This document shows positions 1 to 4,073 of a DNA stretch of 4,073 nucleotides, piece after piece; positions within the stretch are counted from its first letter, which is position 1; the number at the start of each line of letters is the position of its first letter. The position numbers were made by a program, and so were the translations under genes. The stretch comes from a virus (lineage: Duplodnaviria > Heunggongvirae > Uroviricota > Caudoviricetes). Under the pieces are notes generated by a model. That model searched no databases. It worked only from the letters and a program-made list of their open reading frames with translations, and was not told where the DNA came from. The stretch lies in IMG/VR virus record IMGVR_UViG_3300007747_000097; one strand, 5' to 3'.

Positions 1-429
1 CTTCCTCATTACTGGATGTATTACATCCTGTTGTTTTGCGTTAGCTATGTGCTTAACGGCGTTGTTAATTCCGCTTATCACGCTGTGACTGTAAGAATTG
101 AGATATTCGCTGCTCAGAAGCGCAAATCTAAAGAAGAGAAATACGTGCAAGATTTGTTTGATTCGTTAACTCTTGGAGAAAGAGCGTATTTGGCATTCGC
201 TGTAGCCGCTAATAACCAGCTAAAGACAGAAAAGGGAAGCCCTGAAGCAATCTCATTGCTCGAAAAAGGGCTTCTTATTCGGGTACCTTCTGCTACTGGA
301 TATCCTGAAATCGACCGTTTTGTTATCCCGGAACGCTATAGAAATGAGTGCTACATTAGGTTTGCTGGGAAGAAAGACAGTCTTATGGATGAACTTATCG
401 CTCAGGATAAGCATGGCAAAAACAAGTAA
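1..429 (+). CDS. Hypothetical protein, 5' end outside window; hydrophobic N-terminal stretch then charged C-terminal region; possibly a SieB-like superinfection exclusion protein (tentative)
   Basis: Reading frame is open from nt 1 (no stop before the first ATG at 16) to the TAA at 427-429, so at least 143 codons. No comparable minus-strand ORF exists in 1-456. Visible part begins with a hydrophobic segment (YYILLFCVSYVLNGVV). It is convergent with N, so it cannot be transcribed from PL. The SieB assignment rests on position only, and I am not certain of the orientation of sieB in lambda/P22. Confidence 0.5.
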   Translation, partial: LPHYWMYYILLFCVSYVLNGVVNSAYHAVTVRIEIFAAQKRKSKEEKYVQDLFDSLTLGERAYLAFAVAANNQLKTEKGSPEAISLLEKGLLIRVPSATGYPEIDRFVIPERYRNECYIRFAGKKDSLMDELIAQDKHGKNK

Positions 430-456: not shown

Positions 457-711
457 TCAGTTGTTTTGATTTCTTCCACTGCATTCATCTACTTTCTTGC
501 AGCGAAGGCTTCCGAGTGATATTGCTTTTTCAGAAAGGCTTAACCGCTTTCTCGGGTCTTCCTGAACAGGTTCCTCACTGTCTGTGCCGAAGATCGAATC
601 GATGATGTTGCAGATGGAATCACGCTCGATGGCCAGCTTTCTGCGCCGCTCATGACGGCGAGTTTTGGCATTTCCTGCAAATGTTGATTTTCCGTACACG
701 ATTACCGTCAT
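457..711 (-). CDS. N: Antitermination protein N, P22 (gene 24) type
   Basis: Translation from the ATG at 711 gives MTVIVYGKSTFAGNAKTRRHERRRKLAIER..., containing the arginine-rich motif GNAKTRRHERRRKLAIER that I recognise as the P22 N boxB-binding peptide. A GAGGA Shine-Dalgarno lies about 7 nt upstream on the minus strand. The ORF track's 112-aa form (start at 795) adds 28 residues with no such support. Confidence 0.85.
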   Translation of the reverse strand: MTVIVYGKSTFAGNAKTRRHERRRKLAIERDSICNIIDSIFGTDSEEPVQEDPRKRLSLSEKAISLGSLRCKKVDECSGRNQNN

Positions 712-1118: not shown

Positions 1119-1147
1119 AGGAAAAGAAAAACCGGCGCTGAGGCCGG
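1119..1147 (-). terminator. Rho-independent terminator ending the cI / 299-aa gene transcript
   Basis: Hairpin CCGGC-GCTGAG-GCCGG (1132-1147) lies 6 nt past the stop of the 299-aa ORF and is followed on the minus strand by TTTTTCTTTTCC (plus-strand A-tract 1119-1131). Confidence 0.6.
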
Positions 1148-1153
1148 GTATAA

Positions 1154-2053
1154 TTATTTGATTATTTCTTTTATAAAGACTTCTTTCGGTTGGTATTTTT
1201 TATCTGATGATTTGAGCTGGTACGTTATTGTTATATCAGCACGTACAGAAAATTTACCTGCAAAATCTGATGGGTTTACGTTGGGGCCAAGAACCATATT
1301 TACTCTTCGATCTATTAATCCAGGGATAACAGCAGCCCAACCTTTCTCTGGATTGTCGAGGTCTAATGCACGGATTTCAACATCAACATCAAAATGATCC
1401 TGAGTATATGACTCTGGTGTGAAGACAACTTCAGTTGGGGCTTTTTTAATGGTTTCAGCGGGAATGGTCACTGTACCACCCCCTGTACCTATGACCATCG
1501 TAGATCCTTCGTCTGCCCTAGCTGGGGCAAGCGTCTTAATGGAACTTTTGGCAAGAGTCTTCTTATTGGTTACCGTGCTTTCTATGATTGCTTGAAGACG
1601 GTCAGGTGAAATATTAGCCTCACCGGCACCAATATTGATGATTGTATTGTTATTTGCTTCAAAGTGGGAGGTGTTGCTTGGAGCCATAGCCTTAGTTGCT
1701 AGAACTAAGCCATATCCAACCAGACCAATAACAACAGCACCAACGAGAGCGTTTCTCATTTTCCCATTTCCGATCTTTGCATGAGCGCCAGCAAGAAACT
1801 TGTCCATTTCTTCTTGGCTACCAAAGAGGAGTTTAATAACAATATCTTCATAAAGGCTTCCTGCTTCTAATCGCGCAACATGCACCGATATATCAAGGAT
1901 ATTAGCCCCTGTCAGTTCCTGCAAAACACCTTCTGATTGTTTTGCGATGGCCTCCCACCCTTGAAGGGAGGTAATCACATCTTTGATGCTTACAGGTTCT
2001 TTAGTTGAATAATATATGTTTTCGGTAAAGGTTAAAGATAATTCTTGGGACAT
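1154..2053 (-). CDS. Hypothetical single-pass membrane protein, 299 aa, unknown function; candidate lysogen-expressed exclusion/abortive-infection protein
   Basis: 900-nt ORF with a GAGGG Shine-Dalgarno 5 nt upstream of its ATG (2051-2053). One strongly hydrophobic segment at about residues 101-123 (NALVGAVVIGLVGYGLVLATKAM) is preceded by GKMR, suggesting N-in topology. Same strand as cI, 130 nt downstream of its stop, then a terminator. I recognise no family motifs (no kinase, nuclease or HTH signatures). Confidence 0.8.
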   Translation of the reverse strand: MSQELSLTFTENIYYSTKEPVSIKDVITSLQGWEAIAKQSEGVLQELTGANILDISVHVARLEAGSLYEDIVIKLLFGSQEEMDKFLAGAHAKIGNGKMRNALVGAVVIGLVGYGLVLATKAMAPSNTSHFEANNNTIINIGAGEANISPDRLQAIIESTVTNKKTLAKSSIKTLAPARADEGSTMVIGTGGGTVTIPAETIKKAPTEVVFTPESYTQDHFDVDVEIRALDLDNPEKGWAAVIPGLIDRRVNMVLGPNVNPSDFAGKFSVRADITITYQLKSSDKKYQPKEVFIKEIIK

Positions 2054-2182
2054 CCGAGCCCTCGCTGTTTCTTTCGATTTGCTGTGTTAAGCTAATATTT
2101 TAATATCCATGTTTCTGTTTGCTTGCAGTGTGTTTCTCACCACCATCCAAACGTACTGGTTACTAGCTATGTGATGATGAAG

Positions 2183-3634: not shown

Positions 3635-4073
3635 ATGACAAATACAGCAAAAATACTCAACTTCGGCAGAGGTAACTTTGCCGGACAGGAGCGTAATGTG
3701 GCAGATCTCGATGATGGTTACGCCAGACTATCAAATATGCTGCTTGAGGCTTATTCGGGCGCAGATCTGACCAAGCGACAGTTTAAAGTGCTGCTTGCCA
3801 TTCTGCGTAAAACCTATGGGTGGAATAAACCAATGGACAGAATCACCGATTCTCAACTTAGCGAGATTACAAAGTTACCTGTCAAACGGTGCAATGAAGC
3901 CAAGTTAGAACTCGTCAGAATGAATATTATCAAGCAGCAAGGCGGCATGTTTGGACCAAACAAAAACATCTCAGAATGGTGCATCCCTCAAAACGAGGGA
4001 AAATCCCCTAAAACGAGGGATAAAACATCCCTCAAATTGGGGGATTGCTATCCCTCAAAACAGGGGGACACAA
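3635..4073 (+). CDS. O: Replication initiator O, N-terminal part (3' end outside window)
   Basis: ATG at 3635 is preceded by AGGAGT. Translation MTNTAKILNFGRGNFAGQERNVADLDDGYARLSNMLLEAYSGADLTKRQFKVLLAILRKTYGWNKPMDRITDSQL... matches lambda O as I recall it. The ori iterons lie inside the coding sequence, as in lambda. Confidence 0.9.
   Translation, partial: MTNTAKILNFGRGNFAGQERNVADLDDGYARLSNMLLEAYSGADLTKRQFKVLLAILRKTYGWNKPMDRITDSQLSEITKLPVKRCNEAKLELVRMNIIKQQGGMFGPNKNISEWCIPQNEGKSPKTRDKTSLKLGDCYPSKQGDT
3983..4068. repeat. Lambda-type replication origin iterons (four O-binding sites)
   Basis: Four roughly 18-bp repeats, each internally dyad-symmetric: ATCCCTCAAAACGAGGGA (3983-4000), ATCCCCTAAAACGAGGGA (4003-4020), ATCCCTCAAATTGGGGGA (4027-4044), ATCCCTCAAAACAGGGGGA (4050-4068). 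Confidence 0.9.

Follow-up and report, generated by a model that had tools for sequence, protein, structure and literature searches.

What kind of gene lies behind the repressor of a lambdoid phage, at the position where lambda carries rexA and rexB? The question is raised by a 4,073-base-pair (bp) stretch of DNA from the IMG/VR virus record IMGVR_UViG_3300007747_000097, referred to here as the window. The window is a lambdoid immunity region. One 43-bp indel aside, its sequence matches that of Escherichia phage 1H12 (Jouyvirus), and those of a set of 'Lambda_ev' gut coliphages, at 100% identity. Within it, an open reading frame (ORF) of 299 amino acids (aa), the target of this analysis, follows the cI-type repressor gene on the same strand, and the order cI, gap, gene, terminator, leftward operator and promoter (OL/PL), and N mirrors the order cI, rexA, rexB, OL, and N of lambda. 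The ORF belongs to an uncharacterised family of membrane proteins that repeatedly uses the hotspot between repressor and PL/N, behind at least 32 repressors, as a compact cassette that would borrow the promoter of the repressor. The gene itself, its layout, its terminator, the bounds of the cassette, the linkage to repressors, and the lack of homology to known families can be described with high confidence. What the protein does can be approached from its position and architecture, which point, with less assurance, to protection of the lysogen against superinfecting phages.

An earlier note on this DNA had described a 900-nucleotide (nt) ORF on the cI strand, placed roughly 130 nt after the cI stop codon and preceded by its own Shine-Dalgarno sequence. 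All three points hold. The ORF starts at an ATG, the gap that separates it from the cI stop measures 129 nt, and the Shine-Dalgarno sequence GAGGG lies 5 nt before the start codon. A consensus scan of the minus strand of this gap (2054–2182) found no terminator-like and no sigma-70-like promoter site; a weak or non-canonical promoter is possible. At the other end of the gene, an intrinsic terminator (Table 1) has a hairpin that begins 6 nt past the ORF stop and folds at −9.1 kcal/mol (z = −2.65 against shuffled sequences). OL and PL are placed downstream of this terminator because operator-like repeats and a PL-like promoter map at 911–955. The repeats at 915–935 and 942–955 are paralogous to those of the rightward operator at 2883–2903 and 2942–2955 (repeat families D2 and D12), and the PL-like promoter runs from 939 to 911. 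The terminator directly after the ORF, described in the note as isolating the unit from PL, is thus confirmed. The ORF can be regarded as a real gene rather than a chance ORF, since hundreds of homolog clusters match it at full length.

The limits of the mobile unit become visible when the window is compared by blastn with five loci that carry five different repressors (L010, L011, L012, L043, and L045). The copies of the protein behind these repressors are 90–97% identical, and homology at the DNA level extends only from 10–60 nt before the ATG to just beyond the T-run of the terminator. The transferable unit is a ribosome-binding site, the ORF, and a terminator, without a conserved promoter, and it moves independently of repressor specificity. 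A classical moron consists of a promoter, a gene, and a terminator inserted between conserved genes, often with deviant base composition. Sharp insertion boundaries and a dedicated terminator are present here, and a promoter of its own was not found. As for composition, guanine-plus-cytosine (GC) content is 41.2% in the ORF, 45.3% in cI, 45.0% in cII, and 43.0% over the whole window. The locus is therefore AT-richer than its flanks in direction, as previously stated, by a margin that is small. Of the case for moron acquisition made in the note, the argument from AT-richness is weak, and it is the sharp homology breakpoints that speak for it.

The site occupied by the cassette is itself a place of exchange. 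The cI family of the window is present in 615 E. coli genomes. The 150 genomes with a sub-allele at least 99% identical to this cI carry the target gene, while the remaining 465 lose homology at window position 2155, 28 nt past the cI stop. In Shiga toxin (Stx) 2a phages with a 97%-identical cI, homology is regained at position 1020, and the interval between the two breakpoints is filled by an alternative cassette. Its first gene encodes a 113-aa protein that matches the PADLOC candidate PDC-S43 at full length (E 7e-42), and its second a 285-aa NYN-domain nuclease (PF01936). This two-gene cassette lies on the cI strand and is carried by the 465 E. coli genomes as well as by the Stx2a phages, with a cI that is 95–99% identical. 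The slot behind cI is a cassette-exchange site. Published work likewise treats the interval between cI and N as a hotspot of mosaicism, with rexAB and bstA among its occupants (PMC8585504).

Linkage to a repressor extends well beyond the window. In a synteny sample of 70 loci with a callable homolog (24–100% identity), a repressor with a helix-turn-helix (HTH) and/or S24 domain lies upstream on the same strand in 49. These repressors comprise 32 distinct proteins when clustered at 90%, and at least 18 families at 40% identity. Of these, 22 are directly adjacent (≤350 nt); the rest are separated from the gene by one or two others, as in Pseudomonas phages D14C and U9, except in three distinct cases, where the repressor is found 1.8–2.9 kb upstream. 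Hosts of linked loci include E. coli, Edwardsiella, Kluyvera, Leclercia, Citrobacter, and Pectobacterium, and the linked homolog of the Pseudomonas phages is 24% identical to the target. The counts are lower bounds, since the local HTH/S24 profiles missed at least one real S24 repressor (that of L010, recovered with Pfam). Another hit of these profiles, a 161-aa ORF in L004 that had not been called as a gene, is probably spurious, and where GC content is high the crude ORF caller gives antisense artefacts. Downstream of the gene, 30 of 54 distinct loci (56%) have a terminator-like site, compared with 73 of 1,080 random control windows (6.8%). With the layout matching that of lambda and homologs standing behind 32 distinct repressors, the structural and positional reading that places the gene at the rexAB position is strongly supported.

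The repressor slot is not the only one used, and at least six different slots are occupied. The positions away from repressors are recognised moron slots. For instance, homologs are found antisense between Q and the holin/endolysin genes (L050 and L058), after an endolysin gene and DUF2514 (L074), and after the primase of a satellite-like AlpA/P4-type element without lysis or structural neighbours (L006). Others precede a lysozyme gene (L009), a Mu-like protease gene in a Mu-like head region (L004), or further tail genes and the tape measure gene within a tail region (L015), the last two being co-oriented with their surroundings. No conserved partner gene was found, and the E. coli copies are solitary. 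In Pseudomonas phages a 165-aa neighbour without a PADLOC match is located upstream of the homolog. In a Methylocaldum locus (L024), a PD-Lambda-3_B/HEPN-like gene (5121–5912, E 2.8e-14) stands just upstream of a distant homolog in a repressor-led operon, and in a Motiliproteus locus (L022), a gene for a DUF499 defence-type ATPase (3125–6343, PADLOC E = 0) stands two genes downstream of another distant homolog.

Database searches place the protein in a family without offering a mechanism. It matches phrog_4506 over its full length (E 1e-170, 567 bits, residues 1–299 against model positions 1–300 of 300) and phrog_3243 weakly (E 0.004). Membership yields no mechanism because neither family has an assigned function. 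The query has no match above threshold in Pfam, no family match in NCBIfam, and none in PADLOC-DB v2.0.0 at E ≤ 1. No sequence in the PDB was matched by phmmer or by the family profile, and a fold search of the PDB and BFVD returned nothing significant except one uncharacterised homolog. A match to DUF1206 (E 0.007) is below the cutoff, covers the transmembrane segment, and was dismissed. When 91 diverse members were compared with Pfam and PADLOC, no significant family match was obtained apart from one to the PADLOC candidate PDC-S42 (E 2.9e-5), in a member that is not among the ten longest; four further PADLOC matches lie near E 0.01. The PDC-S42 match is a lead which, if true of the whole family, would tie it to a candidate derived from defence islands. 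The earlier note had suggested a new family. This holds insofar as Pfam, NCBIfam, and PADLOC have no entry for the protein and no paper was found that discusses or names it; it calls for qualification insofar as PHROGs already list the family as phrog_4506. In short, the family is already catalogued but uncharacterised, and by its sequence it appears unrelated to the defence proteins known from the repressor slot.

The family is nonetheless large. One search gave 56 homolog clusters and an exhaustive profile search gave 662 clusters at 50% identity, of which 286 were found at E ≤ 1e-30. Nearly all members are ~295–335 aa long and align over their full length, with no fusions, and they range from Enterobacterales to Nitrosomonas and cyanophage. 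The identical protein occurs on at least 1,000 contigs, always annotated as 'hypothetical'. A survey of 5,426 complete E. coli genomes finds the gene in 151 (~3%), including that of the enteropathogenic E. coli (EPEC) strain E2348/69, and the family also occurs in many other Proteobacteria. For the EPEC copy (L076 4055–4825; 99.4% nt identity), the annotated protein, E2348C_RS03600, has only 256 aa, and the locus of strain EECO1006 (hit H46) is split by an IS1 insertion. Both copies are possibly inactivated alleles.

An AlphaFold2 model built with a 35-sequence alignment is confident (mean predicted local distance difference test score (pLDDT) 82.8; predicted template modelling score 0.68). 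It consists of an N-terminal domain (1–94), a helix (101–123), a series of short helices (125–180), and a beta-rich C-terminal domain (185–297). The single hydrophobic helix that had been noticed near residues 100–123 coincides with the modelled helix and is the sole Kyte-Doolittle peak: the highest score of any 19-aa segment is 2.24, from residue 102 on, and outside residues 90–135 none exceeds 0.93. One transmembrane (TM) segment is present in 35 of 35 aligned homologs, and in all 35 lysine and arginine are biased toward its N-terminal flank (mean 3.6 versus 0.94 on the C-terminal side). Since the positive-inside rule is satisfied throughout, the N-terminal domain is predicted to be cytoplasmic and the C-terminal ~175 residues to be periplasmic.

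Conservation over the 91 diverse members (alignment A3), down to 24% identity, is distributed across both predicted faces of the membrane. M1 is conserved in 97% of them. Conserved residues are L30, G65, S66, E69, and F77 in the N-terminal domain and P177, P206, A229, D231, D233, G238, W239, and R250 in the periplasmic part, where all but P177 and P206 belong to the core IRAxDxDxxxxGW...R of the C-terminal domain. Between the two, the TM helix is the least conserved segment (pairwise identity 0.20 versus 0.27–0.40 elsewhere), although its residue G115 is kept in 86%. Among closer relatives, the motif ANNNTIINIGAGE, placed just beyond the membrane, is invariant as well. The two soluble domains are under about equal constraint and each has near-invariant residues. 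Because both are constrained and the TM helix least so, the protein appears to act on both sides of the membrane.

How does the gene compare with what is already known from this position? Like the target, lambda rexA and rexB lie on the cI strand, ~110–130 nt after cI and upstream of OL/PL and N, and their products include a membrane component. In contrast, lambda uses two genes, for the cytoplasmic RexA and the polytopic, 144-aa RexB, whereas the target is a single bitopic protein of 299 aa with a large predicted periplasmic domain. Homology was rejected for both, with hhalign probabilities of 0.1% (RexA) and 1.2% (RexB). A parallel in organisation is bstA of the Salmonella prophage BTP1, a single gene after cI with its own Rho-independent terminator that is presumed to use the repressor promoter, and whose homologs likewise lie repeatedly downstream of diverse prophage repressors (PMC8585504). 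BstA has been reported at sites of phage DNA replication, whereas the target is predicted to be anchored in the membrane, and membership in the BstA family was rejected, as neither the query nor, apart from the PDC-S42 lead, the 91 members gave a significant match in Pfam or PADLOC. The PDC-S43 and NYN cassette of the Stx2a phages shares the exact insertion site, the strand, and a 97%-identical cI with the target; it differs in comprising two genes for unrelated proteins without a TM segment, and its own defence role is only a candidate one.

Superinfection exclusion (Sie) proteins offer a second point of comparison. T4 Imm and Sp and the lactococcal Sie2009 are membrane proteins that block genome entry at the inner membrane. 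P22 SieA and HK97 gp15 also block genome entry, and they resemble the predicted form of the target in being membrane proteins, expressed from the prophage, that act at the inner membrane or face the periplasm; the gene for HK97 gp15, moreover, is itself a moron that brings its own terminator. P22 SieA (164 aa versus 299 aa) shows no homology to the target, with an hhalign probability of 0.6%, HK97 gp15 was rejected because it is too small at 62 aa, and the SieB family PF14163 matches the neighbouring gene at 16–429 rather than the target. In addition, none of these Sie proteins is known to have a conserved ~100-aa cytoplasmic domain, and the target family, at ~660 clusters, is far more widely distributed.

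Taken together, these features indicate that the gene is the cargo of a promoterless moron cassette inserted just downstream of a prophage repressor gene. As such a cassette follows the repressor, the ORF would be transcribed with cI in the lysogen from the repressor maintenance promoter (PRM) and, by analogy with lambda, also from the repressor establishment promoter (PRE). Strand, spacing, a gap free of signals, and the comparison with both lambda and BTP1 all point to co-transcription, and transcription from a repressor promoter fits a cassette that carries no conserved promoter of its own. The terminator would end the cI transcript before OL/PL. The product would be a bitopic inner-membrane protein. 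In it, a ferredoxin-like domain of ~98 aa would face the cytoplasm, a TM helix rich in Gly would cross the membrane, and the remaining ~175 aa would lie in the periplasm, where the conserved juxtamembrane motif is followed by a helical linker and then by a small beta-rich domain that bears an invariant patch of acidic and aromatic residues. The favoured reading of its function is that it protects the lysogen, at the cytoplasmic membrane, against superinfecting phages: its periplasmic part would contact the machinery by which an incoming phage delivers its genome, or a membrane component used by that machinery, and the conserved cytoplasmic domain would anchor the protein, oligomerise, or relay the entry event. 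An anti-superinfection role of any kind is considered somewhat probable on grounds of position and architecture. The proposal of an exclusion or abortive-infection effector in the earlier note is likewise plausible, given the other occupants of the slot (rexAB, bstA, and the PDC-S43 and NYN cassette behind the same cI allele) and the membrane architecture. The full statement, which combines cassette, membrane protein, and protection of the lysogen, is held to be slightly less likely than not. Entry block through the periplasmic domain is put forward tentatively, as the most likely mechanism, because a form anchored in the inner membrane or facing the periplasm is usual for entry-blocking Sie proteins.

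Several observations weigh against this reading. The protein has no homology to known exclusion or defence proteins, as illustrated by hhalign probabilities of just 0.1–1.2% against RexA, RexB, and SieA and by the empty PADLOC search of the query. Known entry-blocking Sie proteins are usually small, lack a conserved cytoplasmic domain of ~100 aa, and are often phage-specific. The invariant periplasmic residues of the target family are kept from Enterobacterales to Nitrosomonas and cyanophage, and such invariance across phyla is easier to reconcile with a conserved target in the host, or with a site for catalysis or a ligand, than with a phage target that evolves fast. The N-in/C-out topology is predicted by a single criterion, the positive-inside rule. 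Some distant members are co-oriented within structural operons (L004 and L015), so members of this type may instead serve the cycle of the phage that carries them. Finally, known defence genes adjoin the homolog in two loci only, which is anecdotal.

A bolder version of the anti-phage reading supposes that the target is the founding member of a large, previously unrecognised, single-gene anti-phage family that works by transmembrane coupling. On the periplasmic side, the ANNNTIINIGAGE motif and the DxD...GW...R patch would recognise, by detection or binding, some general feature of genome delivery by phages at the inner membrane; on the cytoplasmic side, the ferredoxin-like domain would carry out the response or pass it on. 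Spread of the family would be in the form of a promoterless cassette that relies on repressor transcription. To our knowledge, a two-sided membrane architecture of this kind has not been described for known Sie or abortive infection (Abi) proteins. In this specific form the proposal is rather unlikely.

Among explanations that depart from entry exclusion, the main rival is an Abi-type pore or effector. Here, the cytoplasmic N-terminal domain would sense a phage product and the Gly-rich TM helices would oligomerise into a depolarising pore, which amounts to a function like that of RexB, or of the single-protein TM effectors in other defence systems, in one polypeptide. The slot is the one used by the Abi systems rexAB and bstA, the conserved cytoplasmic domain could serve as the sensor, and the TM helix has a glycine-zipper-like pattern that includes the frequently conserved G115. 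One member also matches a PADLOC model of a two-TM effector, at a non-significant E of ~0.01. What the pore model leaves unexplained is the distribution of constraint: the helix that would line the pore is the least conserved segment of the protein, and conservation is strongest in the periplasmic part, to which the model assigns no task. There is also no homology to RexB and no significant match to a PADLOC effector. An Abi effector is accordingly considered improbable.

Judged equally improbable is an accessory function of the lysogen outside defence, whether as an envelope or stress fitness factor, in lysogenic conversion, or as a membrane sensor that modulates the lysis-lysogeny switch. 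RexA and RexB have themselves been proposed to assist the transition to lytic growth, and a tight and ancient linkage to repressors of at least 18 families would suit a partner in the switch. The cytoplasmic-TM-periplasmic layout resembles anti-sigma or RodZ-type couplers, as an architectural analogy only. What makes this explanation a serious alternative is that the periplasmic residues invariant across phyla suggest a conserved target or ligand on the host side. On the other hand, the gene is also found in Q-holin, post-lysis, satellite, and structural slots, which would be unexpected of a dedicated switch component, the cassette moves without regard to repressor specificity, and the alternative cargo at identical breakpoints consists of defence candidates.

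It is very improbable that the target serves the lytic cycle, for example as a regulator of lysis of the holin/antiholin type or as a membrane-associated morphogenesis factor, and is near cI by chance: a single TM helix with a large periplasmic domain superficially recalls class III holins, and some distant homologs adjoin lysis genes (L009 and L074) or head and tail genes (L004 and L015), but profile and structure searches for a known non-defence family of this sort, proposed as a check in the earlier note, matched none (phrog_4506 and phrog_3243 being the only PHROG families found, neither of them a lysis or structural one), a holin made from the repressor operon would kill the lysogen, and, whereas core lytic genes keep fixed module positions, this gene wanders among its slots, which makes a core lytic gene unlikely, lying antisense to late transcription in L050 and within a satellite-like element that has no lysis or structural neighbours in L006.

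As a type of element, a lysogen-expressed accessory or defence gene in a repressor-proximal hotspot is already known, and an uncharacterised gene there is unsurprising to the specialist. The particular strengths of this candidate are the breadth of its repressor linkage, its promoterless-cassette design, and its predicted two-sided membrane architecture. Should it prove to block or sense superinfection, prophage-encoded immunity would gain a new and widespread family along with a new, two-sided membrane architecture, with bearing on the host range of therapeutic phages and on competition among gut prophages. Even if its role lies outside defence, the gene is among the commonest unannotated genes linked to repressors. 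It is also readily testable: only one gene is involved, the phage (1H12 or a relative) can be cultivated, and the conserved residues are clear.

Table 1. Features of the window and the alternative cassette of an Stx2a phage. Coordinates are those of the window unless a locus is named; arrows give the direction of reading on the minus strand.
Feature	Position	Strand	Remarks
sieB-like gene	16–429	+	PF14163, phrog_1301; start outside window
N	457–795	−	PF25694
OL operators and PL-like promoter	911–955	−	beyond cassette terminator; from repeats and promoter scan
Transferable cassette	1119–2115 at most	−	5′ edge 2062..2115, 3′ edge 1119..1127 (blastn)
Intrinsic terminator	1122–1147	−	hairpin CCGGCCTCAGCGCCGG 1147->1132, then T-run TTTTTCTTTT 1131->1122
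Target ORF, 299 aa, cargo gene of the cassette	1154–2053	−	phrog_4506; full-length homologs
C-terminal beta-rich domain, residues ~184–299	1157–1504	−	predicted periplasmic; core residues A229, D231, D233, G238, W239, R250, plus P206
Juxtamembrane motif ANNNTIINIGAGE, residues 133–145	1619–1657	−	predicted periplasmic; invariant in 35-sequence alignment
Single TM helix, residues ~99–123	1685–1759	−	Gly-rich (VGAVVIGLVGYG); AlphaFold2 and hydropathy
N-terminal domain, residues 1–98	1760–2053	−	beta-alpha-beta-beta-alpha (ferredoxin-like), predicted cytoplasmic; pLDDT ~74–92
cI-to-ORF spacer, 129 nt	2054–2182	−	cassette-exchange breakpoint at 2155
Shine-Dalgarno GAGGG	2059–2063	−	5 nt before ATG at 2053; inside DNA common to loci with different repressors
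cI-type repressor, 235 aa	2183–2890	−	HTH_3 and Peptidase_S24; presumed transcription source (PRM/PRE)
cro-like gene, cII, start of O	right of cI	+	
Alternative cassette (Stx2a phage LC616032)	L077 1027–2545	cI strand	between window breakpoints 2155 and 1020

Other parts of the window also deserve mention. The sieB-like gene adjoins N, as in lambda and P22, and on this account the immunity region would contain a second putative exclusion gene; the 1H12 copy starts 152 nt upstream of the window. The single difference from 1H12 concerns N. A 43-bp, palindrome-containing segment (…CGGTAGCCTGCCGCGTAAATAGCTACGTTTGGCAGGCAAACA…) of the 3′ end of the 1H12 gene (L001 6473–6516) is absent at window 470–476, and the N protein of the window consequently ends in ...DECSGRNQNN instead of ...DECSGSVCLPNVAIYAAGYRKSKQLTAR. 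Insertion of a small element, mobile or hairpin-forming, could account for the segment in 1H12; alternatively, the difference could be a deletion.

The cassette terminator is separated from OL by an AT-rich spacer of ~175 nt (956–1131), in which no ORF or RNA family could be assigned (Rfam negative). The interval of the composition scan that holds it (901–1200) has a GC content of 34% and a strong G-over-C skew of +0.45, and the Stx2a-phage breakpoint at 1020 falls within the spacer. Rfam gave no match anywhere in the window at E ≤ 0.1, and there is thus no known RNA element in the gap between cI and the ORF or in the spacer between the ORF and OL. In a lambdoid prophage of E. coli NC101, an anti-phage small RNA, svsR, is reported to be encoded at the 3′ end of cI (PMC12803456, published in 2026), for which the region to compare here is 2183–2300.

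At the right end of the window, at least four iteron-like repeats (ATCCCTCAAAACGAGGGA and variants) are located inside O at ~3975–4070 on the plus strand, as expected of a lambdoid replication origin. Beyond the window, phage 1H12 carries a gene for the lipocalin Blc in antisense orientation directly after Q (L001 14443–14967). This is the same moron slot, between Q and the lysis genes, that is occupied by homologs of the target in L050 and L058.

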